Below are positions 830 through 59,806 of a stretch of DNA of 64,000 bases, one piece after another. The first letter of the stretch is position 1. Every line of letters begins with the position of its first letter. Source of the DNA: a virus; IMG/VR virus record IMGVR_UViG_3300045988_165974, positions 32,001-96,000 of that record; one strand, given 5' to 3'. The position numbers were made by a program, and so were the translations under genes. Below the pieces are notes generated by a model that searched no databases, had not been told where the DNA came from, and saw only the letters and a program-made list of their open reading frames with translations.

Positions 830-839
830 CCAATCTCAC

Positions 840-2375: not shown

Positions 2376-2378
2376 CTC

Positions 2379-7951: not shown

Positions 7952-8859
7952 TTACATCACTCGCTTTTTCTAATTCTTCTTCAAATTCTTTACTTAATTC
8001 AATGGCAGTATCTCCATCTTCAATTGTATATTCCCCTGTAGCAAGTCCTAAGAACTTAGCTAAAGGTTTTATAAGATATTTAGTTATATACTTTCCAATT
8101 CCATCTATATCTTCATACTCTTCTAATTTTACTAGGATTGGCTTCGTTCTTTCATAAATTTGCATTTTAGTACCAAAAGTTTCTCCTGCCGTTTCTCCAG
8201 CTTTTTTCTTTTGATTTGGTTTTACATCGGCATCTTGCATTTTAGAAGAAACTAATTTAGACATTTTTTCAAAGGTAGCCATATCTCCATTGATTCTAGC
8301 TTTCTGACCTTCTAATTCAATCACACACAGTTCCTTAAATAGTTTCTTTGTAGTAAGTTCTCTTGGAGCATAGAACTCGTCATACTCTTTATACGCCCTT
8401 TCTAGTATACGATATTCGTCATCCGTATACCCTTTGCCCCATTTAATTCTGATTGAATAGGTGATTGGAAATTCATCCTCTGCCCCTAATTCATCTAAAA
8501 TCTTTATTTCAAATAAACTATCTAAAGAAGTCTTTCCTTTATATTTCCTATGATTAGAACCCATTCTTCTCATGTAAACAACCATAAGAGGCTCACTACC
8601 ACCCCTCAACGGCTTTGCTAGTTCTTCATCATAATAAATATCAAAGTTCATGCAAAAGTGTCTTAAAGCCAGTAATTCATTCCCTTTATATAAACCTTCT
8701 AAAACTTTATATCTTTCAAGAAGGCAATCTTTACATATCGGAATCTTTTCATCTTCATATAAGGCACTATATGTACTGTAAAAATGTCTTTGCATTTCTT
8801 TTTCTTCTTTACAATCGTTGCATTTTAATTTTGGTTTTTCTACTCTTTTCTTCTTCAAT
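7941..8859 (-). CDS. possible terminase small subunit
   Basis: Lies immediately upstream of terL and overlaps it. The track ORF runs to 8969, but that extension crosses a terminator hairpin. TTG at 8859 with an AGAGGTGAG RBS is the plausible start. It carries CxxC...CxxC. Confidence 0.45.
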
Positions 8860-8873
8860 TGTTTCTCACCTCT

Positions 8874-8902
8874 AAAAAATAGACTGCCCAGAAGGGGCAG
8901 CC
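8874..8902 (-). terminator. intrinsic terminator after the ClpP-like gene
   Basis: Minus strand reads GGCTGCCC-CTTCT-GGGCAGTC followed by TATTTTTT. Confidence 0.6.
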
Positions 8903-8994
8903 TTGATAGGGAGATTGATATGATTAGTTCTACTTTAAGAACTAAAAAAAGCCTATGTAATATATACATAAGCTCGATTAATTCTTAAAATTAA

Positions 8995-9606
8995 TTAGTC
9001 TATTTCAGGATTCTCAAAATTATATACATCATGTGTATAAAATCCTTTTTTCTTAGCTTCTTTATATCCAAAGAATTTTAGACATGTTTCTGATTCTCTT
9101 AATTCTTTTCTTGTAAGTTTAGTTTTCTCTAACACTATACTATCTAACTCTCTTGATAGTTGTTTATCTGCTTTTATTATTGATTCCATTTCTTCTAAGT
9201 ATCCAGTCAATCCAAGTCCTTGATATCCTGTTCCATGTATTGCAATTTGAGAAAATCTAGTACCTGTTCTTATATCACATGATAAAAATAAATAAACTGC
9301 CATACTTGCACATTGTCCTATTATATGTCCAATTACAGGAGCTTCTAATTCTTCCATTATACTAAGTATTGCACATCCTGCATTTACACTTCCTCCTGGG
9401 GAATTAAAGTAAATTTCAACAGGTTCTAAAGACTCTTTATACTTATCTGTTTTTTCCATATTTCTAGCAACTATTTCTTCATCTTCATCTATAATATCTC
9501 TAAGCGATTTGATGATTTCAATTGCCATTTTATTATCTATTACTCCATATATTTCTAATCTTCTGTTAACTTTGTCTTTTATTTTATCTTTATTGCAATC
9601 ACTCAT
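8995..9606 (-). CDS. ClpP-family serine protease (prohead protease type)
   Basis: FNSPGGSVNAG, QCASMA (Ser) and IAIHG (His) match ClpP/S14 motifs. 203 aa, AGGAGG-type RBS. Confidence 0.85.
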   Translation of the reverse strand: MSDCNKDKIKDKVNRRLEIYGVIDNKMAIEIIKSLRDIIDEDEEIVARNMEKTDKYKESLEPVEIYFNSPGGSVNAGCAILSIMEELEAPVIGHIIGQCASMAVYLFLSCDIRTGTRFSQIAIHGTGYQGLGLTGYLEEMESIIKADKQLSRELDSIVLEKTKLTRKELRESETCLKFFGYKEAKKKGFYTHDVYNFENPEID

Positions 9607-9622
9607 ATAAATGCCTCCAATC

Positions 9623-9886
9623 TTAGTATTCTGTATCTACTGTTATTGATACATTTATTTTTTCTTTATCAATGTAATTTTTTAATATTTCTTTTATTTC
9701 ATGAACATCCATATCATTTTTTGTATCTATTGTTAATTTTAAATCTTCTTCTTTTTCTAATTTGTCTAAGACTTCATCTAATCCATAGACATTTTCTCCT
9801 ACTTTTGTTTTTTCTACAACAATTAGTTCTCCATTTTCTTCTCTAATTGTTGCATCTTTAATTGTTAATTTTGATACTTTTTTCAT
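9623..9886 (-). CDS. hypothetical acidic protein
   Basis: 87-aa ORF with an RBS, packed upstream of the protease gene. Confidence 0.45.
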   Translation of the reverse strand: MKKVSKLTIKDATIREENGELIVVEKTKVGENVYGLDEVLDKLEKEEDLKLTIDTKNDMDVHEIKEILKNYIDKEKINVSITVDTEY

Positions 9887-10193: not shown

Positions 10194-10330
10194 TGGAAAC
10201 AGTTGGATTTGAACCAACACCCTCTTCTTGACCTATAAGATTTAATTTCTTCTTTTAAATATATTGCTGTATGTGTCCCATAATCCCACTAGACACATAA
10301 TTATTTGTGCTACCATTACACCATGTTTCC
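10194..10330 (-). ncRNA. tRNA-like gene with about 64 extra nt between D arm and T arm
   Basis: Acceptor GGAAACA/TGTTTCC, D arm GTGT-AATGGTA-GCAC and T arm GTTGG-TTCAAAT-CCAAC are intact. The middle holds the hairpin ATGTGTC..GGACACAT plus ACAGCAAT. No standard anticodon arm is present. Confidence 0.6.
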
Positions 10331-12453: not shown

Positions 12454-12519
12454 TGGACTTAATCGGAATTGAACCGATAACATCATGCCTGATAATTTTC
12501 CCCATTAAACTATAAGTCC
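12454..12519 (-). ncRNA. tRNA-like gene lacking an anticodon (4-nt loop)
   Basis: Acceptor GGACTTA/TAAGTCC, a D arm, and T arm ATCGG-TTCAATT-CCGAT. The anticodon arm is only TATCA-GGCA-TGATG. Total length is 66 nt. Confidence 0.55.
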
Positions 12520-12851: not shown

Positions 12852-14114
12852 TTAAATTGCTACTGTCTGTACCATTTGTGATGTTCTTGCAGTGACTCGC
12901 TTACAGTTACTTAACTTTGGCGTTTTAAAACCTCTTGGCATTGCTGAAAAAACAATCTTATTCCCATCAATGTCCATAAGAATTGCATATCCTGTAAACA
13001 TTCTTCCCTTAATAAAGTATTCCTTGCCAAAGTATTTTACTTTGTCATATTTTCTAAAACCGTATATTTTACCAGTTGTAATAGGCTGTTCTGAACGAAC
13101 ACCTTTTGTTTTTCGAAAATCACCATCAGAAACACATTTCTTTTTGTAAAGATTACTCCTTACATAAAAAGCATTCCCTTGTGTTGATATAGTACAAGCA
13201 TCATAATAATGTTTTTTGTCTATCCCTAAATGTAAACGATTAGTCTTTGTCACATATCCAAAAGTTTCAATAGCATTTGGATAGAATCTGAAAAGCTGCT
13301 TACGGATAGAATTCATTTGCGTAGCATATTTAAGATTACCCTTAACTTTACCGCTTAATTTAGGGTTAATCTTCTCACTATGTAAATCTTTATGACAGGT
13401 GTGACATAAAGTAATTAAATTACTTTCTTCGTCAGAACCACCTTGACTACGAAATACAATATGATGAACTTCTAATTTGCTATCCTTATGCTTGCCTTTA
13501 CAATATTGACAAGTATAGTTATCTCTATTAAGTACCATTGCTTTTGTATTTTCAAATCCATAGTTAACACCTTTCTGATACCCCCAATGTCTAACCTTGG
13601 AATTTGCAAGTATTGGATTTTTCATTAAATGCATATCAAACTTCCCTGTTTCAAATACTAAAGTTGTAATTGGTAAAATAGATTTAATATATTCTATTTC
13701 CTTTACATGACTATGAAGTTTGCTCTGCATTGTAGGACTAAATCTATCCTTTCTAATAGAATTTGCACGATTTAACCATCTTGCTTTTCTATAACGAGTT
13801 TTACGATTTCGTCTGTTTCTACGATACTTTGCTCTTTGTGTCATTTTGTTAGTAATGTCGTTTCTTACAACAATTTCCGACATATAAACAATATTTCCTT
13901 TTTCATCTGATACTGCTGTTCCTATTGTTCCACTACCTGTATCTACACCTAAAATTAAATCTTGAGTGTAGTTTGTACTGTCATACAATAGTTTAATTGT
14001 AAACGGACAACGACTAACAACTTTAGCTTTTCTATCTTTTAACAGATGTCTGATTTTCCCATACCTATTCGTAGGCATAAGTGGTTGTCCATCTTTGTTT
14101 AATACATATACCAT
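12852..14114 (-). CDS. iscB: IscB RNA-guided nuclease (RuvC + HNH; OMEGA system)
   Basis: N-terminal PLMP motif (DGQPLMPT). RuvC-I GVDTGSGTIG. Arg-rich bridge helix RRNRRNRKTRYRKARW. RuvC-II LVFETGKFD. HNH CQYC...HHIVFRSQGGSDEESNLITLCHTCH. RuvC-III HYYDAC. 420 aa. Confidence 0.9.
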   Translation of the reverse strand: MVYVLNKDGQPLMPTNRYGKIRHLLKDRKAKVVSRCPFTIKLLYDSTNYTQDLILGVDTGSGTIGTAVSDEKGNIVYMSEIVVRNDITNKMTQRAKYRRNRRNRKTRYRKARWLNRANSIRKDRFSPTMQSKLHSHVKEIEYIKSILPITTLVFETGKFDMHLMKNPILANSKVRHWGYQKGVNYGFENTKAMVLNRDNYTCQYCKGKHKDSKLEVHHIVFRSQGGSDEESNLITLCHTCHKDLHSEKINPKLSGKVKGNLKYATQMNSIRKQLFRFYPNAIETFGYVTKTNRLHLGIDKKHYYDACTISTQGNAFYVRSNLYKKKCVSDGDFRKTKGVRSEQPITTGKIYGFRKYDKVKYFGKEYFIKGRMFTGYAILMDIDGNKIVFSAMPRGFKTPKLSNCKRVTARTSQMVQTVAI

Positions 14115-14425
14115 AAACAGATATTCCTTTCATTAAATTAAATTAATAACTCAGCTACACAAGTAACTGTTATGCGTACTATACTGTACTGTTACCATAC
14201 AGTTGTTTCGACTTCAACTCGACAATGATATAAAGGCTTTTTACATATACATTACAAGGCTGTTCTTACTCTGACCTAACTTAAATGTATACGATAGAGC
14301 AATGGTCTGTTGCGTCAACCAAAGGTATCATGACTTAAATATCGTAGCCATCATTTCTGTGGCTTAGTCTGGTGAACCATTTAACAGAAGCCCATAAGCT
14401 TTAGCTTGTGGGTAGTTCACTTAAT
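14115..14425 (-). ncRNA. putative IscB omega-RNA scaffold
   Basis: About 300 nt directly 5' of iscB, locally GC-richer and ORF-free. It has several helices, e.g. GTGAAC..GTTCAC and CCCACAAGCT-AA-AGCTTATGGG. The position matches published IscB omega-RNAs. Confidence 0.65.
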
Positions 14426-14818: not shown

Positions 14819-14936
14819 TGCCGAAGAATAGATTTGAACTATTATCCTATAGCTTCCCTGTTTGAAATTGCTGCTTATGTATTTATCAATACATCTATTT
14901 ATTGGCTATTGCTCCAACCATTTGAGCTACTTCGGC
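14819..14936 (-). ncRNA. tRNA-like gene with a 51-nt anticodon loop
   Basis: Perfect acceptor GCCGAAG/CTTCGGC, D arm GCTC/GAGC, anticodon stem ATAGC/GCTAT and T arm AATAG-TTCAAAT-CTATT. The loop holds hairpin ATGTATT-GATA-AATACAT plus AAGCAGCAAT. Confidence 0.65.
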
Positions 14937-26133: not shown

Positions 26134-26403
26134 CTAATCCTTCATGCTATCATATATATTACTTATAGTCTTTTTAAAAGCATTATCTTTATTCTCTTTT
26201 GGTTTAGTAACCTTTGTAACAGGCTTACTCTTTTGAGGGGGAGTAGCTGCTAAAACTACCCCCTTAAGCATAAACTTTCTTTCTAATAACATTCTTTCAA
26301 GTGCTTGACTGTTTGTAGAAAGTCCATTTTCCTCTTTATAAGCTTTCACATCCTCATACAAGTCTTTAGAGAGAGAATAACTAGTCGTTATCTTCTTCGC
26401 CAT
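26134..26403 (-). CDS. parR: ParR-like centromere-binding protein (probable ribbon-helix-helix)
   Basis: 89-aa basic protein that overlaps the parM stop. This is the typical parM-parR order. Confidence 0.5.
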   Translation of the reverse strand: MAKKITTSYSLSKDLYEDVKAYKEENGLSTNSQALERMLLERKFMLKGVVLAATPPQKSKPVTKVTKPKENKDNAFKKTISNIYDSMKD

Positions 26404-27334
26404 CTATCTCGCCTCCAAACTGCTCTGAACAGATGTAATAAAGTCCTTCGGCAGTAGCCATTTGAGGATTCTCTATCATCTTATATTTATTGTCAAAATT
26501 AAGTCTCATAGAAGTTCCTCCTGCTATTCTAATATCCATTTCATCTGTATTCTTCCAGATGTCAGAAATGTATTGATTAAGTTTTTCTGACATAAGTTCA
26601 TAAGCAGATTCTTTCATTTCTTCTGTGGCTGGCTCTGTATCGAAGTCTATTTCAAAAGTTTCCTTAGAAAGATTCTTCTTCATAAGTCTATCTCTAACTA
26701 TCTTTAATGCATCTTTATTCCCATATTCCAATGTAGAAGATAAGCTATCTCTAAATCTACCCCCTCTTTCAAAATAACTAAATTCAGAAGTATTAAAACC
26801 AACTGAAACAAGACCAACATGATTATGCTCATTATCTATAAGTCCTTTGTATCTAAGTCCCATAAGAGCAGCATCTGCTTCTCTGAATATATTTATATTA
26901 TTTACAGTAACTCTCTTAGTAGTATTATTTATAGCATCTTGTATTTCAAATGTTTTCCCTTGATATTTATTTATTACCTTATGCATCTCTGATTTTCTAA
27001 AACTCTTATTAGGGACTCCTAGCATGATAGAAACATTATCTTCAACTGCTGCTTGAAGAAGTCCTGTAACAAATAATAATTCAGCAGTTCTTGAAACCTT
27101 AGAATCATTGTTATTTCTGATTGGTGAATAGCTTTCTTTTTCAGATAGTTCTCCTACAAAATACTTCTTACTTTCATATCCTATACAGATAGGAGCTTCA
27201 TATTTATCAAAATCTATATCTTCTGTTCTTCCATCTCCCACGATACTTTTGAATACAAATTCTTTAGGTTTGTTGTTAATAACTGTAAATATCTTTACAA
27301 ACCCTCTCCCAATATCCATACCTATATATTGCAT
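26381..27334 (-). CDS. parM: ParM/Alp-family actin-like segregation ATPase
   Basis: MQYIGMDIGRGFVKI (phosphate-1), VGFNTSEF and IAGGTS (actin-fold motifs). ATG at 27334 follows a GGAGG RBS; the track ORF's upstream extension is unlikely. Confidence 0.75.
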   Translation of the reverse strand: MQYIGMDIGRGFVKIFTVINNKPKEFVFKSIVGDGRTEDIDFDKYEAPICIGYESKKYFVGELSEKESYSPIRNNNDSKVSRTAELLFVTGLLQAAVEDNVSIMLGVPNKSFRKSEMHKVINKYQGKTFEIQDAINNTTKRVTVNNINIFREADAALMGLRYKGLIDNEHNHVGLVSVGFNTSEFSYFERGGRFRDSLSSTLEYGNKDALKIVRDRLMKKNLSKETFEIDFDTEPATEEMKESAYELMSEKLNQYISDIWKNTDEMDIRIAGGTSMRLNFDNKYKMIENPQMATAEGLYYICSEQFGGEIDGEEDND

Positions 27335-27362
27335 ATTATTACCTCCAATATGTTTTTCTTTA

Positions 27363-27391
27363 ATAGTAGCATATATAATTTTTATTCGCAA
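27363..27391 (-). promoter_or_regulatory. parM promoter
   Basis: Minus strand reads TTGCGA, a 17-nt spacer, then TACTAT. It abuts the iterons. Confidence 0.5.
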
Positions 27392-27401
27392 TAATTTTTT
27401 G

Positions 27402-27531
27402 TTAATATATCGTTAATTTTTCATTAGTGTTTTTTAAACATATTAATATATCATTGAGAAACAATTAATATCTTGTGAATATATCATTAACATTCCTGAT
27501 GCACTATATTTTTCTGTGAATATATCATTAG
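27402..27531. repeat. parC-like centromere iterons
   Basis: (T/G)(T/G)AATATATC(G/A)TT(A/G)A at 27402, 27442, 27475 and 27516, plus a degenerate copy near 27464. Spacing is 33-41 bp. Confidence 0.6.
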
Positions 27532-27740
27532 TAAACCATGAGTATATAACTGACACTCTCTATACAAGATTTAGAGCGTTTTGTTTTTCTTCCCTTTGTA
27601 ATTTATCAATGTTATTATAGTTAAACTCTTAGAATGGCTCTGACAGGGTTGTATAGGAAGTATGTAAACATTCTATTTTCCATATAGATTTTGCCGTTTT
27701 TAAATTATGAATTTTATAATATCATTTCTTGCATTTTTTA

Positions 27741-27897
27741 TTTGGGGATTTGGGATTAGGAGGAGATGTGTGGGGTTTTATTGAGTGTTGGAGGGGTGAT
27801 TTTGTAGTGTGTCTGCTGTGTGTCTGCTGTGTAAACAACTGTTGTCTCCTGCCTGAAATACTCGGAAAAAAAATCCTAAAAGTAGGGGGGAGGGGGA
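27741..27897 (+). other. G/T-rich strand-biased island with G runs
   Basis: TTTGGGGATTTGGGA...GTGTGGGG...GGAGGGG...a tandem 11-mer GTGTCTGCTGT x2 (27809-27830)...GTAGGGGGGAGGGGG. It sits in an otherwise AT-rich hub. Confidence 0.6.
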
Positions 27898-28526
27898 TAA
27901 ATTCTATATAATAATTATATTATATCTACTATTTGAAAATAGGAGCATGATTTTTAAAAAAGGCTACTGGGGAGTGTTCTAAATTTTTTCATGCATTTTT
28001 TATAGGGAATAATGGAAAAATTGCAATTGTTTATAAATTGAAACCTCTTACAATTTTCCCGTCAATTTACTTCAATTGTCAGAAAACTTACTACAATTGC
28101 ATAATCCACTCTTAAACTTGCATTTTTAAAACTCCAATAATTCCAATAAAAAATATAACAATACTTAATAATTTATTTAAAAAAATAATCCCTTTATTGT
28201 CTAAAATTCTATATAATCCTTCTATATAACTTTATTGATTTTATGATATAATATAGACAATATAATATATTATTTTTACATTTATTCATAGAATTAAAAT
28301 ACTAATATAATATACTATTATAATTTATAATTAAATATTAAACAATAACTCATATTATATAATAAAGTGTCGAATATATATAACATTTATTAAAAATAGT
28401 AACTGTCTATATGGCTTTTTAAAGTCCTTGTATTCACTTCTTAATACATCTATACCTTTAAAGCTTTAAACTCTTTATAAGCTTAATAACAGGTCATAAG
28501 GTTAATAACCTATAATTTACTATTTA

Positions 28527-28700
28527 TAAACAAATAGTTTACTAATACTATACTTTAAAAAAAATTAGTATTTATATACTAAAAGTTTACTAATACTATA
28601 CTAAAATAAGTTTAATATTTTTAAACAAATAGTATAGTATTAGTAAACTTTAAACAAGTATATTTATATTAAACAAATAGTATATAAATATTAAACTTTA
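28527..28700. repeat. iteron cluster in the hub
   Basis: AGTTTACTAATACTATACT at 28536 and 28584, with its inverted copy at 28631. TAAACAAATAGT occurs three times (plus a degenerate TAAACAAGTA copy at 28651). AGTATAT(TT/AA)ATATTAAAC occurs twice. Confidence 0.6.
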
Positions 28701-29441
28701 AAATTGGGTTTTTACCTTCTAAAATCCAGTTTAAAAAGCCTATTTTATAAAGGTATAAAAGTACTATATATATTTATAGTACTTTTATATTGTCAATTAA
28801 GGAATATATAACAGGCTTTTTATCCCTGTTATATTATATCTAACAACTAACTGGTAAAAGATTATATATTAATAGAGGGGATATATAATTATATAAGTAT
28901 GATAACAATATAAGGCTTTACAATGTAAATAATATAAATAATCTAGTTATCGTCCATTTTTAGATCAATGGACGATAACTAGGCTTTTTACCGACTAATT
29001 ACCTAATAGACTATACATTACATAATTAACATTAGGTTAATAGGTTAATCAATGCATTAGAGGGAATATTGTAGCTTTATAGCCTGTTATATAGATAACT
29101 CTAATTATTTACAACTGGATAATAGATTAACACTAGTTAATAACTAGTACTCTATATAAGAATATAATAGCCTTATGCTTTATTAATAATATAAATTATC
29201 CATAAGCTATATAAAACCTCTTACATTGGCAATACGGGGATATTTTAACCTATATAGTATTTTCAGGAATATATGACCATACCATATAAATTTATTTTTA
29301 TGGATAAATAAAGTTTTTTAAGAAATTTTATTTTTATTATTGAAATACTAGAATAAAAGTAGTACTATATAAATATCTTAATTGATAAAACATCTTATAT
29401 TAATAGCTTAAAACTTTTTTAAAAACTTTTTTATAAAGTAG

Positions 29442-29470
29442 TTGACAATATAAAGTATATAAGCTACAAT
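29442..29470 (+). promoter_or_regulatory. early promoter 1
   Basis: TTGACA, a 17-nt spacer, then TACAAT. An AAAACTTTT-rich UP-like tract lies upstream. Confidence 0.6.
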
Positions 29471-29542
29471 ATAAGAAACAGTACTTTTAATATATTAGTT
29501 AACAGGCTTTTAAAAAAAGTTTAAAAACTTTTAAAAAAGTAG

Positions 29543-29571
29543 TTGACAGAGGATTAAAAAAGTACTATACT
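29543..29571 (+). promoter_or_regulatory. early promoter 2
   Basis: TTGACA, a 17-nt spacer, then TATACT, with the same UP-like tract upstream. Confidence 0.6.
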
Positions 29572-29637
29572 TAAATTAATAAATGAGTTGATAGTTTTAC
29601 ACTAAAAACTTATTTATTACATATTAACCATAGGAAG

Positions 29638-29667
29638 TTGACTTATTCAACTACTATACTTTATAAT
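29638..29667 (+). promoter_or_regulatory. early promoter 3
   Basis: TTGACT, a 17/18-nt spacer, then TATAAT. Confidence 0.5.
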
Positions 29668-30042
29668 AAAGGGGACTAGTAAAGTATTAGTTATCTTATA
29701 TCCTCACCTAAACAACTTGTAGCTTTATAACTTGTACGGTAAAATAAAATATTCGACAACTTTGGGAAATCCTTCAATATACCGACTACTCTTTTATGTA
29801 GTAGCTCATTTCAGTATATTAAAAGCCTGTATCTTGAAGTGCTTAAGAGTGCTTGGAGTTAGGAGTATAAGAGTAACAACTCTTTGGATTAAGAATAAAT
29901 TTTTATCTTTAACCTTTTAACCCTTTTTAAAGGTGTGTGGGTTACCTATTGAAAACCCACTAACATTTTAAAATTAATCTTTGGGTATAAGGTGACAACT
30001 TTATACTCAAACACTAGTTTTAAAATAAAAGGGGGATATAAA

Positions 30043-30246
30043 ATGATAAATTTAAGAAAAAAACCAGTAGAGACTAAAAATTATAGTGTGGAATTAGACA
30101 ATAACAACTCTATGTTATTTAAAAATTTCTTACATGGATTAGGAGCAACTTTTGAAACAAGTTCATGTTATAATCTTGTACATTTTAGTTTAAATTTAAC
30201 TCATAGACAATATGTAAGAGTTAGTAACTTTTTAGATTTATTATAA
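30043..30246 (+). CDS. small hypothetical protein
   Basis: ATG 7 nt after AAAGGGGGA. The track ORF's upstream extension lacks an RBS. Confidence 0.5.
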   Translation: MINLRKKPVETKNYSVELDNNNSMLFKNFLHGLGATFETSSCYNLVHFSLNLTHRQYVRVSNFLDLL

Positions 30247-30254
30247 TTATTCAA

Positions 30255-30335
30255 GGGACTTTAAAAGTCCCTTCATGGTATTAGTGGTTGATAACCTTCT
30301 CGTGGTGATACCGTTTAAACTAATTTTAATCAACC
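30255..30335 (+). ncRNA. cap hairpin + HDV-like ribozyme candidate (copy A1, most divergent)
   Basis: Hairpin GGGACTTTAAAAGTCCC. P1 GGTATTA/TGATACC, P2 GGTTGAT/ATCAACC, L3 TTCTCGT, J4/2 CTAA. It lacks the G1.U wobble and the GG for P1.1. Confidence 0.5.
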
Positions 30336-30362
30336 AAATTTTAAGATAAAAGGGGATAAAAA

Positions 30363-30494
30363 ATGAAAAAATCATTAATTTTAGCTTTAATCATAACTAT
30401 ATTTTGCATGAGTTTAACTTGCTATCAAGTTTCAAGTGATGAAATTCAAGCAACTTTTTTAAACGGATTATTTGATATTACAATTTCATTATAA
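30363..30494 (+). CDS. small secreted/lipoprotein-like peptide (43 aa)
   Basis: ATG after AAAAGGGGA. MKKSLILALIITIFCMSLTC... Below the ORF-track length cutoff. Confidence 0.45.
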   Translation: MKKSLILALIITIFCMSLTCYQVSSDEIQATFLNGLFDITISL

Positions 30495-30507
30495 GGGGGA
30501 TAAAAAA

Positions 30508-30807
30508 ATGAAAACTATGCTAGATATTAATACAAGTGGAGATTATAGAATACATTTAGGACTTGACAAAGGATTTTTAGTAGTGCTAGATAATCAACCT
30601 GTAAATACTATAGGAGTTAAACCAATAAATTGTTGTATTTATAAATTTCCTGAAAATGCGAACTTTGAAGAGTCTGAAATTGTTGAAAATATGCAAGACT
30701 ATATTTTCGTTGCTCCAGTTCGATTTTATGTAGACTTTGATAAAATTGACACTAACATGATGGAGAAAATAACAACTCGAGCATTAAATCATGTTGGTAG
30801 ATATTAA
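30508..30807 (+). CDS. small hypothetical protein
   Basis: ATG after AAGGGGGA. Confidence 0.5.
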   Translation: MKTMLDINTSGDYRIHLGLDKGFLVVLDNQPVNTIGVKPINCCIYKFPENANFEESEIVENMQDYIFVAPVRFYVDFDKIDTNMMEKITTRALNHVGRY

Positions 30808-30812
30808 ATGAG

Positions 30813-30886
30813 GGGACTTTAAAAGTCCCATATGGTAACAAGAGTCAACCTCCCCGTGGTGTTACTGGATAACCAACTAATGACTC
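30813..30886 (+). ncRNA. cap hairpin + HDV-like ribozyme candidate (A2)
   Basis: P1 GGTAACA/TGTTACT (G1.U), P2 GAGTCA/TGACTC, P3/L3 ACC-TCCCCGT-GGT, GG for P1.1, CTAA. Predicted cut at 30833/30834. Confidence 0.65.
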
Positions 30887-30914
30887 AAATATAATAAAGT
30901 AAAGGGGATTAAAG

Positions 30915-31256
30915 ATGATGTTAAAAGAAAAATTAAACGAAATGAAAGCTAATTCAGAAGGAATAAAACTATTTGTAATTGACGATATTTTAAAATTCAA
31001 CGAAAGTGATGACGATATAAAAGCATATATTAACGATGCATTAACTTATGGTTGTTCTAGTGGTTGTGTATCTTGTTTAATCTACTATGTAGATACTCAA
31101 AAATTCTTTGATAAATATCAAGACGAAATTCTTGAAATGCTTGAAAATGCTAAAGTTGAATATGGAATAACTTTCGAAATTAATTCAAATAATCTAGCAT
31201 GGTTTGGCTATGAAGAGACTTTACGAAACATAGCAACTGAATTAGGTATTTGGTAA
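30915..31256 (+). CDS. small acidic hypothetical protein
   Basis: AAAGGGGA RBS, ATGATG start. Confidence 0.55.
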   Translation: MMLKEKLNEMKANSEGIKLFVIDDILKFNESDDDIKAYINDALTYGCSSGCVSCLIYYVDTQKFFDKYQDEILEMLENAKVEYGITFEINSNNLAWFGYEETLRNIATELGIW

Positions 31257-31262
31257 AATGAA

Positions 31263-31345
31263 GGGACTTTTAAAGTCCCTAAATGATAACAAGAGTTTAC
31301 CTCCCCGTGGTGTTATTGGAAACAAGGAAACTTGGCTAAAAACTC
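31263..31345 (+). ncRNA. cap hairpin + HDV-like ribozyme candidate (A3)
   Basis: P1 GATAACA/TGTTATT (G1.U), P2 GAGTTT/AAACTC, the same L3, P4 CAAG-GAAA-CTTG, GGCTAA. Predicted cut at 31284/31285. Confidence 0.65.
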
Positions 31346-31374
31346 AAATTTAAGATAAAAAGGGGATAAAAAAG

Positions 31375-31929
31375 ATGATGAAAAATTTAGTAAATTTAAA
31401 CGAGTTTGAATTGAATAGGGATAATGTAAAAGCTATACTTGAAAATAATTCAGAGTTTAGAAATAGCCTTGAAAGTGATTATTTTGATAGTGAAGTTTAT
31501 TATTATACAACTGAGTTATTAGACAGAATAGATGGCATAAACTGGAGAATAGATTTTGGTTCAGTTGAAATTTGGAAAGGTTTTAGCTCAAATATACTTG
31601 ATATTGTAAAAAGCATATTAGATATTGATTATTTCTTTATAAATGATACGGATATTCTTTTACAAAAATTAGAAGTTTTCTATAATGCTTTATACACTTG
31701 TCCACAGTATGGTAATCGTTTCGATAGACTAGAAGGAAGAACAGAGCAACTTTTAGAAATATTATTTACTAAAATAGAAGATAGCATTAAATCAAGTTTA
31801 GATTACATGGATGATATTGATAATCTTACAGACTGGTATATTGATTCAGGCTATGATGAAAGTTTAACTTGGAGTGGAATGTATATCAATCCAAAGACTT
31901 TCGAATTGTACGAGTTAAAACATTTATAG
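31375..31929 (+). CDS. acidic hypothetical protein
   Basis: 184 aa. RBS AAAGGGGA, ATGATG start. Confidence 0.55.
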   Translation: MMKNLVNLNEFELNRDNVKAILENNSEFRNSLESDYFDSEVYYYTTELLDRIDGINWRIDFGSVEIWKGFSSNILDIVKSILDIDYFFINDTDILLQKLEVFYNALYTCPQYGNRFDRLEGRTEQLLEILFTKIEDSIKSSLDYMDDIDNLTDWYIDSGYDESLTWSGMYINPKTFELYELKHL

Positions 31930-31971
31930 AAATGAAGGTAAAAATCATGACAAGGGCTGCGGTCCTTGTCT

Positions 31972-32025
31972 ATTTGTAAACCTACCGAGGGCGGTCCAAA
32001 GTCCGTGTAAAAGGTGATGGCAAAT
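31972..32025 (+). ncRNA. twister ribozyme candidate (C1)
   Basis: P1 ATTTG/CAAAT, T|AA, P2 ACCT/AGGT, P4 GCGG/CCGT with loop TCCAAAGT, then GATGG. Predicted cut at 31977/31978. Confidence 0.7.
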
Positions 32026-32045
32026 TATAAAGGGGGATAAAAAAG

Positions 32046-32213
32046 ATGAAAAAAAGAATTATAGCAATTTCAGGATTATTAGTAATAGGAATGATGGTAT
32101 TTCATAAGCCATTAAGCTTAAAAGCTATGGATATAGTAGACTATTATGGAGAAAAAACTGGTAAAAATGTTGTATCCGTGATAGACTTTTTAAATGAAGT
32201 TTATTATCTATAA
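32046..32213 (+). CDS. small membrane/secreted peptide (55 aa)
   Basis: ATG after AAAGGGGGA. Hydrophobic N-terminus. Below the ORF-track cutoff. Confidence 0.45.
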   Translation: MKKRIIAISGLLVIGMMVFHKPLSLKAMDIVDYYGEKTGKNVVSVIDFLNEVYYL

Positions 32214-32218
32214 ATGAT

Positions 32219-32303
32219 GGGACTTTCAAAGTCCCTATATGGTAGTAATTGGTTCGCCTCCACGTGGCACTACTGGAAACAAGTTTACTTGGCTAAGAAC
32301 CAA
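32219..32303 (+). ncRNA. cap hairpin + HDV-like ribozyme candidate (A4)
   Basis: P1 GGTAGT/ACTACT (G1.U), P2 TTGGTTC/GAACCAA, L3 TCCACGT, P4 CAAG-TTTA-CTTG, GGCTAA. Predicted cut at 32240/32241. Confidence 0.65.
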
Positions 32304-32323
32304 AAAAAGAAGGGATAAAAAAG

Positions 32324-32644
32324 ATGATAAAAAAGATTGAAGAAAAAATTAAAGAATTAGGCTTCGTTGTAGGTTGTTACAATGATAAAATTGATGACAT
32401 TTTAACTCCAGGAGCAACACGTAAAGTTTGTGGGTTACTAGAAGAAGAATACACAGACGAATTGATGCGAATTAGAGGTAAACTATATAAAGTCTGTATA
32501 GCAACTGTTGACAATGAAAAAGATATCAATATATATCATGCATTAGACTATTACAGACAATACGGAGAAGAACATCTGGATAATGACTATGAAGAAAAAA
32601 TGATGACTTTAAAGGAATATAAAGCTTTAAAAATGATGGTATAA
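32324..32644 (+). CDS. small acidic hypothetical protein
   Basis: RBS AAGGGA. Confidence 0.5.
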   Translation: MIKKIEEKIKELGFVVGCYNDKIDDILTPGATRKVCGLLEEEYTDELMRIRGKLYKVCIATVDNEKDINIYHALDYYRQYGEEHLDNDYEEKMMTLKEYKALKMMV

Positions 32645-32723
32645 GGCAAAAAATTCGAAACCGTGGGTTTTCCACGGTCTACAAATGATAGGCTAATTGT
32701 ACTGACGAGATAGCCTTTGTCTT
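32643..32723 (+). ncRNA. type II hammerhead ribozyme candidate (B1)
   Basis: Open stem II AAGGCAA/TTGTCTT. CGAAAC-stem III-GTC. Stem I TACAA/TTGTA. CTGACGAG. Loop I/stem II pseudoknot TAGGCT/AGCCTA. Predicted cut at 32679/32680. Confidence 0.75.
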
Positions 32724-32754
32724 TTGTAAAAATGATGATGAAAAGGGGATAAGA

Positions 32755-33042
32755 ATGATGAGAGAACATGCAATATATAAAGATTATATCAGATATATAG
32801 GAGATGGATTTAATTTTTCAGAATTATATTCATATGAAGACGGTAAAGAATTACATTTCAATAAATTTATGGATTATTGGGAAGACTCTAAAACTGGTAG
32901 ATTTTATCGTTGGAAAAATTCAAAAGATAATAAAATTATAAAAGAATGTCATGAAGAAACGCTTGATTATTTTGGATTTAAATCTAGTCGACTAAATGAT
33001 GATAAAGAATCTTTAGAAGATGAAGAATATCTACCATTCTAA
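32755..33042 (+). CDS. small hypothetical protein
   Basis: RBS AAAGGGGA, ATGATG start. Confidence 0.5.
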   Translation: MMREHAIYKDYIRYIGDGFNFSELYSYEDGKELHFNKFMDYWEDSKTGRFYRWKNSKDNKIIKECHEETLDYFGFKSSRLNDDKESLEDEEYLPF

Positions 33043-33044
33043 TG

Positions 33045-33126
33045 AAGGTAATAAATTCGAAACAAGGGATTTTCCCTTGTCTGTAAATGATAGGCTCTTT
33101 ATACTGACGAGATAGCCTATTACCTT
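33045..33126 (+). ncRNA. type II hammerhead ribozyme candidate (B2)
   Basis: Stem II AAGGTAAT/ATTACCTT, stem III AAGGGA/CCCTT, stem I TGTAAA/TTTATA, CTGACGAG. Predicted cut at 33081/33082. Confidence 0.75.
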
Positions 33127-33153
33127 TACAATAGAAATGAAGGGGGATTAAAG

Positions 33154-33408
33154 ATGATGAAAAATTTAGAGTGTGTATATGATAGCAGAAAATCATTTTA
33201 TGGAAAGGCAAAAGTTGAAACTAATTCAAATGAAGGTATAATTACTTTATATAGCTACGGAACAAAAGTAGCTTGTATAAAAGATGGTAAACCAGAACTT
33301 TTATGGAATGGATATTCCCAAACAACTTACAGACATATAGCCGAATTCTTTAAACAAAATGGTTTTATGGAATATAGTTCAAAAGCAGTAATTCAAACTT
33401 TATTGTAA
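33154..33408 (+). CDS. small hypothetical protein
   Basis: RBS AAGGGGGA, ATGATG start. Confidence 0.5.
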   Translation: MMKNLECVYDSRKSFYGKAKVETNSNEGIITLYSYGTKVACIKDGKPELLWNGYSQTTYRHIAEFFKQNGFMEYSSKAVIQTLL

Positions 33409-33416
33409 TTTTTTAA

Positions 33417-33445
33417 TTGACATTTTTACACAAAAATGATACTAT
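33417..33445 (+). promoter_or_regulatory. internal promoter of the early operon
   Basis: TTGACA, a 17-nt spacer, then TACTAT. Confidence 0.6.
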
Positions 33446-33448
33446 TAA

Positions 33449-33551
33449 ATCAAGAGGAGTAATCCCCTGGTTCTTAATGCAGTAGCTAATAGCTAGAGGT
33501 CGCAACTCCTCATAAAACATATGCAGAGCGAGAAAATGAAAGGGGATAAAG
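33449..33551 (+). promoter_or_regulatory. structured 5' leader (riboswitch-like?)
   Basis: GAGGAGT...ACTCCTC and GAGG..CCTC are competing helices. TCCCCT is complementary to the downstream SD AGGGGA. See the finding. Confidence 0.4.
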
Positions 33552-33998
33552 ATGATGAAAATAAAAGAATTATATGAAAACATTAGTAACTGTTTAGATT
33601 GGATTAAAATCAATAATAGTGATTTAAAAGACATATTTGAAGGTGCTAAGGCATTAAGAAGAGGAATTCAAGTCCTAGAATATGACAAAGAAATGATAGG
33701 CAAAATTGATGATAACTATTTTATTTCAAATTTTATTATGGATATTTTAGAAAAAAATCTTCCAGAGTACCAATTAAGTTTAGACATGATTGATGACATT
33801 TTAGAAGAACTAGATATAGATGATGATACTTTAGAAGAATTAGATGAAAGCGAATTTGAAAATCATGTTATAATCAAAAATACTTTCGTAGATGTAAAAG
33901 AGTCAATTTCTTTTGATGATTACTGGGATGGATTAGACTTTGATAGTCTTTTAAAAAGATTTGAGTTTGCAAAAGAGGAAATTGGTTACTTATTATAA
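33552..33998 (+). CDS. very acidic hypothetical protein
   Basis: 148 aa, rich in D/E. Confidence 0.55.
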   Translation: MMKIKELYENISNCLDWIKINNSDLKDIFEGAKALRRGIQVLEYDKEMIGKIDDNYFISNFIMDILEKNLPEYQLSLDMIDDILEELDIDDDTLEELDESEFENHVIIKNTFVDVKESISFDDYWDGLDFDSLLKRFEFAKEEIGYLL

Positions 33999-34090
33999 GT
34001 TTAAATTCGAAACAGGGAATACAGGAAATCCTGTATTGCTTGTCTATAAGTAACAGGCTGCTTGTACTGATGATGATAGCCTAAGCTTAT
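33995..34090 (+). ncRNA. type II hammerhead ribozyme candidate (B3)
   Basis: Stem II ATAAGTTTA/TAAGCTTAT, a 14-bp stem III, stem I TATAAG/CTTGTA, CTGATGA+T. Predicted cut at 34044/34045. Confidence 0.7.
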
Positions 34091-34115
34091 AAATATAACG
34101 ATAAAAGGGGATAAA

Positions 34116-34376: not shown

Positions 34377-34468
34377 GAAGGATAAATTCGAAACAAGTGA
34401 TACGGGTTTTCTGTATTACTTGTCTATAAGGTTAAGCTACTTATACTGACGAGATAGCTTAATCCTTC
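34377..34468 (+). ncRNA. type II hammerhead ribozyme candidate (B4)
   Basis: Stem II GAAGGAT/ATCCTTC, stem I TATAAG/CTTATA. The pseudoknot covaries here to TAAGCT/AGCTTA. Predicted cut at 34424/34425. Confidence 0.75.
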
Positions 34469-34491
34469 TAAAATGAAAGGGGATAAAAAAG

Positions 34492-35019
34492 ATGATGAAA
34501 AAAGAAAACATTGAAAGATTTTTAAAGTTATTAAATTCAGAAGAAATAAGCGATAAAATAAAAGATATGTATCTTGACTTACTAGAGAGTCATATAGATG
34601 ATGACCTTGGAGTCAAAATAGAAATCATATTAAGCCTAGATGGAGAAGTAGATAACAGATTTTTTACAGGTAATTCAACTAGAATGGACGTATATGAAGG
34701 CAACTCAATTGTTGTGGCAGCCATCAGACATGATGTAAATATTACTGATGAAATGATGGGAGAAATAGTCGATGTATTAAGTAATGATGTATATGAAGAA
34801 TTTGTTCAATATCTTTATGGATTAGACGATATTCCAGAAGAAGAGCAAGAAGAATATCTTGAAGAAAATCTTACTTGGGATAATTTCTATGACTTTGATT
34901 CTATAATATATGGAGAAATTCAGAGAGAAGCTTGGGAAAACAATGTTGACTACTATGGAAATGAAGAAATTGACCAAAAGCTTTATGAATGTATTCAACA
35001 ATTAGAAAATCTTTTATAG
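34492..35019 (+). CDS. very acidic hypothetical protein
   Basis: 175 aa, rich in D/E. Confidence 0.55.
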   Translation: MMKKENIERFLKLLNSEEISDKIKDMYLDLLESHIDDDLGVKIEIILSLDGEVDNRFFTGNSTRMDVYEGNSIVVAAIRHDVNITDEMMGEIVDVLSNDVYEEFVQYLYGLDDIPEEEQEEYLEENLTWDNFYDFDSIIYGEIQREAWENNVDYYGNEEIDQKLYECIQQLENLL

Positions 35020-35034
35020 GAGCAGCAATGCTCC

Positions 35035-35095
35035 ACTCTAAACTCACTTGGCACATGTCAAAAGGTCCAAAGTCCTTGAAAAGAGTGATGGGAGT
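35035..35095 (+). ncRNA. twister ribozyme candidate (C2)
   Basis: Preceded by hairpin GGAGCA-GCAA-TGCTCC. P1 ACTC/GAGT, P2 ACTC/GAGT, P3 TGGC-ACAT-GTCA, P4 AAGG/CCTT with loop TCCAAAGT. Predicted cut at 35039/35040. Confidence 0.7.
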
Positions 35096-35471: not shown

Positions 35472-35537
35472 ATAATATGAGGTTTGGGAGTCCTTTTAAA
35501 ACTCCCCCTAAATATGAAAATGAAGGGAGAAATAAAA

Positions 35538-35675
35538 ATGGAAGAAAAAAGAGAAATGACAATAGAAGAAGAATTTGAAAAACATATGAAGACTATGGAA
35601 GGACATGTATGCTACGGTTGTAGTGGTTGTAAATTTGCTTTCTATGGAGTTTGTCCATATGCTTTAGAGGGGTAA
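35538..35675 (+). CDS. small Cys-rich peptide (45 aa)
   Basis: ATG after AAGGGAGA. Contains CYGCSGC...C. Confidence 0.4.
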   Translation: MEEKREMTIEEEFEKHMKTMEGHVCYGCSGCKFAFYGVCPYALEG

Positions 35676-35683
35676 AACCTCTC

Positions 35684-35746
35684 TTGCTTTAAACTAGCCA
35701 CCAGAAGGTGAGAGTCCAAAGCCTCTGTGAATAGTGATGGGAGTAA
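35684..35746 (+). ncRNA. twister ribozyme candidate (C3)
   Basis: P1 TTGCTT/GAGTAA (with G.U pairs), P2 ACTA/TAGT, P3 CACC-AGAA-GGTG, P4 AGAG/CTCT with loop TCCAAAGC. Predicted cut at 35690/35691. Confidence 0.7.
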
Positions 35747-35968: not shown

Positions 35969-36063
35969 ATAGTCTAAATTCGAAACAGAGGAAAGAATGA
36001 AGGTTCTTTTCTTTGTCTATAATAAGATAGGCTCTTTATACTGATGATGATAGCCTAGACTAT
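35969..36063 (+). ncRNA. type II hammerhead ribozyme candidate (B5)
   Basis: Stem II ATAGTCT/AGACTAT, stem I TATAA/TTATA, CTGATGA+T. Predicted cut at 36017/36018. It is the last element before the operon terminator. Confidence 0.7.
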
Positions 36064-36205
36064 TATAAAAGGTTAGATAAAATGCTATCAAGAACTCATG
36101 AAAGTGAGTGTTGAATATATTATCATTTTTTGGGAGAGGGTTGCCCTCTCCTATCCCCAATATAGTAGATAAATGATAGTGATATCATTAAATATATATT
36201 ATGTA

Positions 36206-36236
36206 ATCTCTCCAATTGAGAGGTTATTTTTTTTTA
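36206..36236 (+). terminator. intrinsic terminator of the early operon
   Basis: CTCTC-CAATT-GAGAG followed by T10. Confidence 0.7.
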
Positions 36237-45733: not shown

Positions 45734-46903
45734 TTGCTAAAGAGTTACAAAACGGAAATAAACCCAACACAGGAACAAATACAAAAGATAAATAAAACAA
45801 TTGGAACTTGTAGATTTATTTATAATTTTTACATCGCTCATAATAAAGAACTCTATAACAAGGGCGAAAAATTTATGACGGCAAAATCATTCAGTGTTTG
45901 GTTAAATAATGAATTTCTACCAAATAATCCGAATTATTCATGGATAAAAGAAGTAAGTTCTAAATCAGTTAAAAAATCTATGGAAAATGCTTATACTGCT
46001 TTTAATAAGTTTTTTAAGAAACAAAGTAAGTTTCCTAGATTTAAGAAAAAGAATAAATCTGATGTAAAAATGTACTTTGTAAAAAATAATCCAAAAGATT
46101 GTTTCTGTGAAAGACATAGAATTAATATTCCTACTCTTGGATGGATTAAATTAAAAGAAAAGGGATATATTCCTACTACTAAAGACGGATATGTAATTAA
46201 AAGTGGTACGGTTTCTTGCAAAGCTGGAAGATATTATGTATCAGTTTTAATTGATACTTCTGATACAGAAAAACCACAATTAAATGACTTTGGATTAGGA
46301 ATTGATTTAGGTGTTAAAGAATTTGCGGTAATTAGTAATGGAACTATAAAGAAAAATATAAATAAAACTGCTAAATTAAAAAAAATAGAAAAACAATTAA
46401 AAAGAGAACAGCGTTGCCTATCGAGAAAATACGAAGGATTAAAGAAACGCAACAATAAAATGAAAGGAGAAGCCACTAGGCAAAATATTAAAAAACAAGT
46501 CTTAAAGGTACAGAAACTTCATCAAAGAATGGATAATATTCGTACTGATTATATCAATAAATGTGTAAATGAGATAGTGAAAACCAAGCCATCTTATATT
46601 ACCATTGAAGATTTGAATGTAAAAGGAATGATGAAGAATAAACATCTCTCTAAGGCAGTTGCTTCACAGAAATTCTATGAATTTAGAACTAAACTTGAAA
46701 CAAAATGCAAAGAATTAGGAATTGAATTAAGAATTGTAAATAGGTGGTATCCATCGAGTAAATTGTGTCATGAATGTGGTTGTATCAATAAAGATTTAAA
46801 ACTTTCTGACAGAGAATATATTTGTGGATGTGGATACCATGCTGATAGAGATTATAATGCAAGTCTTAATTTGAGAGATGCAATATCCTACAAAATAGCA
46901 TAA
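45734..46903 (+). CDS. tnpB: TnpB RNA-guided nuclease (IS200/IS605 OrfB family)
   Basis: RuvC D (GIDLGVKEFAV), E (ITIEDLNVKGM), Zn finger CHECG...CGCG, and DRDYNASLNL. TTG start. Confidence 0.9.
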   Translation: MLKSYKTEINPTQEQIQKINKTIGTCRFIYNFYIAHNKELYNKGEKFMTAKSFSVWLNNEFLPNNPNYSWIKEVSSKSVKKSMENAYTAFNKFFKKQSKFPRFKKKNKSDVKMYFVKNNPKDCFCERHRINIPTLGWIKLKEKGYIPTTKDGYVIKSGTVSCKAGRYYVSVLIDTSDTEKPQLNDFGLGIDLGVKEFAVISNGTIKKNINKTAKLKKIEKQLKREQRCLSRKYEGLKKRNNKMKGEATRQNIKKQVLKVQKLHQRMDNIRTDYINKCVNEIVKTKPSYITIEDLNVKGMMKNKHLSKAVASQKFYEFRTKLETKCKELGIELRIVNRWYPSSKLCHECGCINKDLKLSDREYICGCGYHADRDYNASLNLRDAISYKIA

Positions 46904-47090
46904 ACAAGCATTTGTAGGTATGTACCGATGGCTTTAGTCGGGAATTTACGACTGTGGACTGTACAAGAACTTGTGAGTAGTGTATTACTTTGTAATCACA
47001 AAAGCATACAGGATGAAACAGTAAGAAAAGTTTGTGAAAACTTTCAATATCTCGATATGGGTATATTTGTCCATATTTTGAGTGGCAGGA
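46780..47090 (+). ncRNA. putative TnpB omega/reRNA scaffold and right end
   Basis: ORF-free, GC-richer stretch overlapping and following the tnpB 3' end. Hairpin CCGATGGCTTTAGTCGG (46925-46941) and AATTTACGAC..TGGA, also seen after the second tnpB. Ends are uncertain. Confidence 0.45.
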
Positions 47091-59631: not shown

Positions 59632-59806
59632 TATCATTAATAAGATAATGCTAATATGTAGGATGCGTTGTATCCAAATTTACGCCCTTGGAGAGTTATA
59701 TCAAACGAAAGTAGGTTGTTATTTATAATTTCCAAAATCGAATTCGTAGAACAGGGAATTAAACAAGATTTATAGATATTTATAGATTTTTGGCAACGGA
59801 GTAAAT

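Follow-up and report, generated by a model that had tools for sequence, protein, structure and literature searches.

Hairpin-preceded HDV-like ribozyme sequences between the early genes of a gut phage, and a proposal for how its transcript may be cut

Why should several copies of a ribozyme-like fold lie between the genes of a phage, each directly behind a small hairpin? The question arises from a 64,000-nt stretch of viral DNA (positions 32,001 to 96,000 of IMG/VR record IMGVR_UViG_3300045988_165974; hereafter the window, from whose first letter all positions are counted), in which a sequence-only reading had proposed four candidates resembling the ribozyme of hepatitis delta virus (HDV), each behind a cap hairpin. 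That proposal was borne out by our analysis, and its interpretation is supported: by sequence, the four elements, here A1 to A4, qualify as HDV-like self-cleaving ribozymes of a known class, and A2–A4 were already catalogued for this genome. We propose, with a probability of roughly 0.6, that these ribozymes cut a polycistronic early RNA between its genes, and that the upstream messenger RNA (mRNA) then ends in the hairpin, which may also shield the folding of the ribozyme.

The four modules, each with a cap hairpin followed by a ribozyme element beginning at nucleotide G1, are arranged as follows (ΔG, folding free energy in kcal/mol):

30253 to 30273, + strand: A1 cap hairpin, 9-bp stem AAGGGACUU/AAGUCCCUU, loop UAA, ΔG -11.4
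30277 to 30335, + strand: A1, degraded HDV-like copy; canonical register ends at 30330
30813 to 30829, + strand: A2 cap hairpin, 7-bp stem, loop UAA, ΔG -9.7; 4 nt from G1
30834 to 30887, + strand: A2, minimal P4-less HDV-like ribozyme of theta type; predicted cleavage 30833/30834
31262 to 31280, + strand: A3 cap hairpin, 8-bp stem, loop UUA, ΔG -10.9; 4 nt from G1
31285 to 31346, + strand: A3, HDV-like ribozyme with P4 (CAAG-GAAA-CUUG); predicted cleavage 31284/31285
32219 to 32235, + strand: A4 cap hairpin, 7-bp stem, loop UCA, ΔG -9.5; 5 nt from G1
32241 to 32303, + strand: A4, HDV-like ribozyme with P4 (CAAG-UUUA-CUUG); predicted cleavage 32240/32241

All four copies share the element order P1, J1/2, P2, P3, L3, P3', P1', GG, L4 or P4, CUAA, P2'. 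As expected of an HDV-like ribozyme, a 3-bp P3 closes a 7-nt L3 (consensus U-C-C-N-C-G-Y), and in A2–A4 the L3 cytosines can form P1.1 with the GG that follows P1. G1 falls at 30277, 30834, 31285 and 32241, as the sequence-only reading had it, and the cleavage position that it predicted, immediately 5' of G1, agrees with the published convention. Its P1 helices are also real, although they are 6 bp long by the published domain parse (GGTAAC/GTTACT, GATAAC/GTTATT, GGTAGT/ACTACT and GGTATT/GATACC) and not 7 bp, the seventh pair having been borrowed from the T of P3. For A2–A4 the remaining details were as described: the P3/L3 unit, the GG available for P1.1, the CTAA right before the 3' strand of P2, and the G1.U wobble that opens P1. 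P2 likewise pairs in A2, A3 and A4 (6, 6 and 7 Watson-Crick pairs, respectively), as had been claimed for all four copies; in A1 the strong P2 assigned to it (GGTTGAT/ATCAACC) is in the wrong register. We assign A2, on these sequence features, to the minimal theta type, and A3 and A4 to the P4-bearing, drz-Fpra-like type.

Caution about A1 had been voiced from the outset, and it was justified: A1 is a degraded copy with a weak canonical P2. It parses as GGTATT-AGTG-GTTGATA-ACC-TTCTCGT-GGT-GATACC-GT-TTAAA-CTAA-TTTTAAT, in which the P2 register homologous to that of an intact relative (GTTGATA/TTTTAAT) contains two G.U pairs and a mismatch. The strong alternative P2 strand (ATCAACC, to 30335) leaves CTAA 5 nt out of place; CUAA, the J4/2 segment whose first base would be the catalytic C (consensus C-N-R-A), abuts P2 in A2–A4 and in A1 abuts the weak register only. 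The first P1 pair of A1 is G1-C, which is also found in 13/89 family members, and its P1.1 has a single pair, UC/GU in place of the CC/GG of A2–A4, a variant shared by 5/89 unique family members, some of them adjacent to tRNAs; within the published list P1.1 covaries as UC/GA and GC/GC. An apparently intact counterpart of A1 occupies the first position in the list for MGV-GENOME-0374641 (70527-70581), with the same J1/2 (AGTG), the same L3 (UUCUCGU), a P1.1 of UC/GA and a better P2. Since this counterpart has a proper P1.1 and the better P2, A1 is best read, from its sequence, as a decayed copy.

Evidence that the fold is more than a chance arrangement was derived from two tests. In one, P3-L3-P3' was held fixed and the flanks of each copy were shuffled 20000 times; a descriptor that asked for G1, a fully paired P1, at least 6/7 P2 pairs and C-N-R-A directly before P2' was passed 5, 0, 2 and 1 times per 20000 for A1, A2, A3 and A4, respectively. 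In the other, phage-contig matches to CGTGG-N7-GGATAANCAACNAA were collected in a fixed 54-nt frame with no selection for pairing, and yielded 42 distinct sequences, A2 included, that remained gapless after MAFFT. The full double pseudoknot gave 84.1% standard-pair cells in this alignment, vs 59.9% after shuffling and 31-48% when the 3' partners were slid; the corresponding covariation scores were 0.587, 0.163 and 0.096-0.154. Two-sided compensatory changes occurred at 5/6 P1 pairs and at 7/7 P2 pairs, and matches to the full P1 plus P2 descriptor enclosed 37/60 matches to the pure sequence pattern. Closer to the window, A2 and A3 differ at one P1 pair and at two P2 pairs, with compensation in each case. 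Further compensated changes are seen in relatives of the window copies: the P1 helices of A3 (GATAGC/GCTATT, in contig L089 and MGV-0374641) and A2 are affected, as is the P4 helix of A4 (CGAG/CUCG). Aligning the four copies and their relatives with MAFFT misplaced the P4 and 3' regions, and we used the domain parse and the gapless, pattern-anchored alignment instead. Minimum-free-energy folding that excludes pseudoknots gave Z-scores of -1.1 to +0.15 for the ribozyme parts; it is uninformative here, because the fold is a double pseudoknot.

An Rfam scan at curated thresholds reported nothing in the A1–A4 region, and a permissive scan aligned A4 (37.7 bits, E 1.7e-4) and A3 (22.5 bits) with RF02682 (HDV-F-prausnitzii) over the whole model. 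The ribozyme behind this family, drz-Fpra-1, shares with A3 and A4 the L3 CCUCNNCGUGG, the GG and the AAC-P4-GGCUAAGA segment; P1 is shorter in A3/A4, and both score below the gathering value of 44. drz-Fpra-1 sits upstream of glmM in a bacterium, whereas A1–A4 are part of a phage gene array.

A structure descriptor search of phage contigs was our route to the literature on theta ribozymes, in which most of these elements were already present. Entry no. 1824 of the non-tRNA theta ribozymes (61 occurrences) in Data File 2 of Kienbeck et al. 2024 (PMC10879173) is base-for-base identical to A2, and rows 1577-1579 of their Data File 4 are the exact sequences of A2, A3 and A4, placed in MGV-GENOME-0374426 at 62834-62887, 63285-63346 and 64241-64303. 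Each published coordinate equals the window position plus 32000, so the window corresponds to MGV-GENOME-0374426:32001-96000. A1 is not among the Data File 4 rows listed for that genome. The final refined RNArobo motif for theta ribozymes, which its authors report to have a near-zero false-positive rate (PMC10879173), is matched by A2; A3 and A4 appear only in the first list, obtained with a looser motif (Data File 4). The remark that HDV-like ribozymes are rare in phages is outdated, as the same study records thousands of occurrences in gut phages and metagenomes. With theta ribozymes the copies share a P1 of 6-7 bp beginning at G1, a 7-nt P2, NCC-UCCNCGY-GGN, the GG, a short L4 and CNRA; A3 and A4 differ in having P4. 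A further difference is that theta ribozymes are defined by the 3' end of a tRNA lying within 5 nt of the cleavage site, whereas here a 7-9 bp hairpin follows a protein gene. We found no + strand tRNA near any copy (the tRNAs of the window lie at 9.9-14.9 kb, on the minus strand), which places the copies outside the tRNA-associated theta class. In vitro cleavage has been demonstrated for four tRNA-linked members of the family, the sole assayed relatives in the literature, and the non-tRNA copies are stated to 'likely serve unknown biological functions' (PMC10879173). The word 'hairpin' is absent from that paper.

Since a published table for this genome already holds three of the four, the ribozymes as such bring no novelty. 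The hairpins in front of them are another matter. In 64 kb, the GGGACTTTAAAAGTCCC motif (up to 2 mismatches) occurs only at 30255, 30813, 31263 and 32219, always readable on the + strand, and sequence shuffles give an expectation of 0 occurrences. RNA folding predicts stems of 7-9 bp (GGGACUU/AAGUCCC) with a 3-nt loop and a ΔG of -9.5 to -11.4 kcal/mol. The hairpin had been called invariant: it is indeed present in all four copies, although not strictly constant, for A3 and A4 each deviate at one base of the loop, to which all variation is confined. The hairpins begin 5-7 nt past a stop codon and finish 3-5 nt ahead of G1; that of A1 starts 7 nt after the stop at 30244-30246 and ends 3 nt from G1. 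A scan of viral sequences for the cap hairpin alone returned 15 single, apparently unrelated matches. We also noted the sequence AAUGA(A/G/U)GG after the stop codons at 30805-30817, 31254-31267 and 32211-32223, and at the junctions at 31927, 33040 and 34373. It resembles the ribosome-binding region used in this operon (AAUGAAAGGGGA), so the 5' arm of the cap contains a Shine-Dalgarno-like GGGA/GGGGA.

The pairing of hairpin and ribozyme extends to other phages. We parsed 92 unique HDV-like ribozymes (88 from phage contigs, the others from the window), 36 of which follow the 3' end of a tRNA, leaving 52 that are neither in the window nor next to a tRNA. An initial definition of a hairpin (at least 5 bp, G.U allowed) proved too lax, since 27% of random positions passed; we therefore adopted an energy criterion (ΔG of -8 kcal/mol or lower, ending no more than 6 nt before G1) together with shift controls. 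By this measure a hairpin stands just before G1 in 28/52 ribozymes (21/42 contigs), compared with 10% of random positions in the same loci (binomial p ~1e-14), and in only 1-3/52 when the reference point is moved 10-60 nt upstream. The gap between hairpin and G1 is 1-4 nt, with a mode of 2. As a partner of non-tRNA phage HDV-like ribozymes that is both precisely placed and widespread, the cap hairpin is apparently unreported in the searchable literature.

Two phages provide independent examples. In one, an unrelated phage of 55% GC represented by a contig (L168; IMGVR_UViG_3300043442_000931), a 7.5 kb segment contains 12 HDV-like cores that lie between small open reading frames (ORFs); the cores are on the minus strand (oriented 2200-9750), most of them behind a GGGGC-loop-GCCCC hairpin. 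In its seven parsed copies the stop codon lies 22-33 nt from G1, vs 27-31 nt in the window. The P1 of L168 hardly varies (GGCACC/GGUGCU), and P2 is different in most copies. The other, the cultured Clostridium phage Amboise (host C. innocuum), has a UGUACAU-loop-AUGUACA hairpin, then UAU, then an HDV-like ribozyme.

A further observation concerns the operon to which A1–A4 belong, an early + strand operon of ~6.6 kb with ~17 small ORFs, mostly of unknown function. At 27.4-29.9 kb lies an AT-rich non-coding stretch where the GC skew switches and transcription diverges. The gaps of the operon hold 13 ribozyme candidates: the four HDV-like elements, four of the twister-P1 class and five type II hammerheads. 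For each HDV-like element, the preceding stop codon is 27-31 nt away and the next Shine-Dalgarno sequence follows after 6-20 nt. The additional features are:

29442 to 29667, + strand: three sigma-70-like promoters (11/12 matches each) at the operon head; two share a duplicated upstream block
31949 to 32024, + strand: hairpin 31949-31970 and twister-P1 candidate 31973-32024, in the next intergenic gap
32650 to 32725, + strand: type II hammerhead-like element (CGAAAC - stem III - GUC, stem I, CUGACGAG)
~33045-33130, 34005-34090, 34385-34470 and 35975-36065, + strand: further type II hammerhead-like elements
33455 to 33534, + strand: hairpin 33455-33468 and twister-P1 candidate 33471-33534, in an intergenic gap
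35019 to 35095, + strand: hairpin 35019-35034 and twister-P1 candidate 35035-35095, in an intergenic gap
35666 to 35744, + strand: hairpin 35666-35682 and twister-P1 candidate 35686-35744, in an intergenic gap
36203 to 36236, + strand: intrinsic terminator (10-bp stem and T9) that ends the ribozyme-rich operon

The four twister-P1 candidates score 36-45 bits against RF03160, below its gathering score of 67. The five hammerhead-like elements were missed by Rfam even at E <= 10 (29-34 kb) and E <= 1 (34-64 kb), and we treat them as candidates by virtue of their core motifs and an architecture that matches a published description (PMC3088659): a CUGAYGA core and a pseudoknot between loop I (AUAGGCU) and the 3' tail after stem II (AGCCUAU). 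In the operon that follows (36.3-37.6 kb) the genes are tightly packed, and no ribozyme was reported.

What unites the three classes is the end that each would leave on the upstream RNA. The twisters cut near their own 5' edge and have a separate hairpin 5-8 nt upstream of each cut, and the hammerheads retain stem III 1 nt from the new upstream 3' end. An HDV-like ribozyme leaves no structure of its own on the 5' product, so a separate hairpin would have to supply the 3'-terminal stem-loop. Taken together, the cap hairpins, the twister hairpins and stem III of the hammerheads imply that a cut at any of the 13 sites would leave the upstream product with a terminal stem-loop. That each cut in this operon should leave a hairpin-ended upstream RNA is a rule that apparently has no precedent in the searchable literature.

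We hypothesize the following sequence of events. During transcription the ribozyme would fold into its nested double pseudoknot, and the C of CUAA, with a bound metal, would catalyse attack by the 2'-OH of the nucleotide preceding G1. The upstream mRNA would be released, its 3' untranslated region consisting of little besides the hairpin (7-9 bp) and 3-5 further nt, with a 2',3'-cyclic phosphate at the end; a 5'-OH and a compact ribozyme fold would open the downstream mRNA, just before its ribosome-binding site. The cap hairpin would serve as a 3'-terminal stem-loop against 3' exonucleases, and would also keep the upstream coding sequence from mispairing with the ribozyme. This scheme builds on observed features, namely the membership of the elements by sequence and structure, their covariation and gene context, and a hairpin that is both general and precisely placed; from these we infer cleavage of the copies and a stabilising or insulating role for the hairpin. 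Insulation is equally compatible with the placement of the hairpin, and both roles can coexist.

A precedent exists in prophage hammerhead clusters, for which processing of long phage transcripts was proposed and demonstrated in vitro (Perreault et al. 2011, PMC3088659), an idea restated in a 2019 review. There, too, several ribozymes punctuate one transcript, single-gene mRNAs were proposed as the result, and the hammerheads are of type II with a loop I pseudoknot, as are the five in this operon (PMC3088659). Those clusters contain hammerheads only, whereas here three classes are interleaved, and a separate hairpin accompanies those that cut at their 5' edge. More tentatively, and with the odds somewhat against us, we suggest that phage HDV-like ribozymes are general formers of 3' ends, invariably against a pre-formed helix, be it, for theta ribozymes, a tRNA acceptor stem or, for copies behind a protein gene, a dedicated cap hairpin, and that with twisters and hammerheads they would make up a punctuation system yielding single-gene mRNAs with a 3' hairpin and cyclic phosphate, a 5'-OH and a folded ribozyme. 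If so, host RNases that need a 5'-monophosphate or a 3'-OH would act poorly on these ends, and accessory-gene cassettes would be independent of their neighbours and hence freely exchangeable. The possible importance lies in the function of the thousands of non-tRNA HDV-like ribozyme occurrences in gut phages, which their discoverers left open: an upstream hairpin and a mixed ribozyme array lead to a model that is concrete and open to test, with single-gene mRNAs, each capped by a hairpin, being excised from a polycistronic early transcript.

Several points weigh against our proposal. Cleavage of A1–A4 is predicted from their sequence, A1 probably cleaves poorly or not at all, and none of the four reaches the gathering score of RF02682 (44 bits), A1 and A2 going unreported. 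Around half of the non-tRNA family members have no obvious hairpin, among them a subgroup (contigs L054, L136, L137, L139, L147, L154, L076, L221 and L258) with a conserved, apparently unstructured upstream block (...CGAUAACAGCGAAGUAGCAACGAAGCCC-) that may be the 3' end of another RNA. Conversely, a cap-like hairpin (GGGAGU-CCUUUUAAA-ACUCCC) follows a stop codon at ~35480-35510 on the + strand with no ribozyme behind it. Within a genome the stem keeps its sequence as P1 and P2 drift; a purely structural role does not require this constancy, which may instead point to a sequence-specific reader or to concerted evolution. Finally, the stabilising effect against exonucleases is drawn from general knowledge of bacterial RNA decay.

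Which other readings could accommodate these data? If the ribozymes are real, the hairpin could act solely as a folding insulator, locking the last upstream nucleotides away from the P1 and P2 strands and permitting fast co-transcriptional cleavage, with no role in mRNA stability. A hairpin next to a ribozyme can make both ribozyme folding and the expression of neighbouring genes independent of context, as illustrated by upstream hairpin effects on the folding of genomic HDV and by RiboJ-type insulators. Chadalavada and Bevilacqua reportedly found that upstream structure promotes the active fold of the genomic HDV ribozyme. Genomic HDV, however, belongs to a viral RNA replicon and RiboJ is engineered, whereas the arrangement described here is natural, repeated and intercistronic. 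Insulation would suit a hairpin that ends 1-5 nt from the cleavage site, in the place held by the acceptor stem in tRNA-linked relatives, and the twisters of the operon have upstream hairpins as well. We nevertheless think it unlikely that this is the whole explanation: the hairpin at ~35480-35510 has no ribozyme to insulate, the many hairpin-less family members manage without such help, and the hammerheads put a hairpin of their own at the new 3' end, which suggests that selection acts on the end of the product.

The invariant stem raises a different prospect, in which the hairpin is a sequence-specific site for recombination or for binding by a protein such as a phage RNA-binding protein, or in which a short stretch of conserved DNA, acting with the likewise conserved ribosome-binding site, lets related phages swap gene cassettes, the ribozyme being a passenger or an expression insulator of the cassette. 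Its stem is constant over four copies that vary in the loop alone while P1 and P2 drift with compensation, L168 repeats the pattern with GGGGC/GCCCC, and the gene order around gene 33154-33408 differs between the window and its relative L089. We regard this as decidedly improbable, given that hairpin sequences vary freely between phages, which excludes a universal reader, that 17 nt is short for homologous recombination, and that no candidate binding protein was found among the small ORFs of unknown function. We give next to no credence to a third account, in which the hairpins serve as intrinsic terminators or attenuators, with inactive repeats downstream that resemble HDV-like ribozymes. A terminator scan did flag two of the hairpins, though only on the minus strand, and the Rfam scores are below gathering; yet the two flags arise from the AAATGA in front of the hairpin, P1, P2 and P4 are preserved by compensatory changes, and A2 exactly matches the published low-false-positive motif. 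As no + strand T-run follows any of the four hairpins, we rejected this account.

The phage itself has a genome of ~28% GC in the window, and its DnaB-like helicase shares ~52% identity with the helicases of the large C. difficile phages phiCD211 and phiCDIF1296T; by these sequence features the source is a large, low-GC gut phage related to the phiCD211 group. A blastn search with 6 kb found no match among GenBank phages, and related-locus searches with a 184-amino-acid ORF and with DnaB found no relatives. A close relative of the locus is present in L089 (IMGVR_UViG_3300008482_000010), where positions 1-3306 contain the same small genes as 30915-34100 of the window, reordered. The ortholog of gene 33154-33408 follows the A3 module in L089 and a hammerhead in the window. 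L089 additionally carries a RadC-like gene and, just behind a promoter (~2920-2990), contains an HDV-like ribozyme that has no hairpin. Its gene order fits a view in which gene-plus-ribozyme units behave as shuffled cassettes.

Elsewhere in the window, RNA repair or ligase genes were not seen among the 40 larger ORFs, the window being only part of the genome. A HEARO RNA (RF02033, 103.9 bits, 14207-14420, minus strand) lies directly upstream of a 420-amino-acid ORF with RRXRR and HNH domains (12852-14114), which by sequence is an IscB-type nuclease with its guide RNA, inside the phage tRNA cluster. Adjacent LAGLIDADG-like and GIY-YIG plus helix-turn-helix ORFs, of homing-endonuclease types, are found near the tRNA region (5251-7685, minus strand). 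Within the cluster, Rfam tRNA matches at 10194-10330 (137 nt) and 14819-14936 (118 nt), both on the minus strand, were not called by ARAGORN, nor was a third, short match at 12454-12519; the 137- and 118-nt matches may be tRNAs with insertions. Two TnpB-like ORFs (OrfB_IS605 plus a Cas12f1-like TNB domain; 45734-47024 and 58516-59758, + strand) are each followed within ~50 nt by a RAGATH-18 RNA (74.9 and 67.6 bits). Lastly, within 26381-29950 an actin-like ORF (ALP_N, ParM/Alp-type) on the minus strand adjoins the 2.3 kb AT-rich non-coding region with its GC-skew switch, in which AGTTTACTAATACTATACT recurs in perfect copies (direct at 28536-28554 and 28584-28602, inverted at 28631-28649) and a palindrome with a 17-bp stem stands at 28942-28983; the ORF and the repeat region together suggest a plasmid-like partition and origin region.

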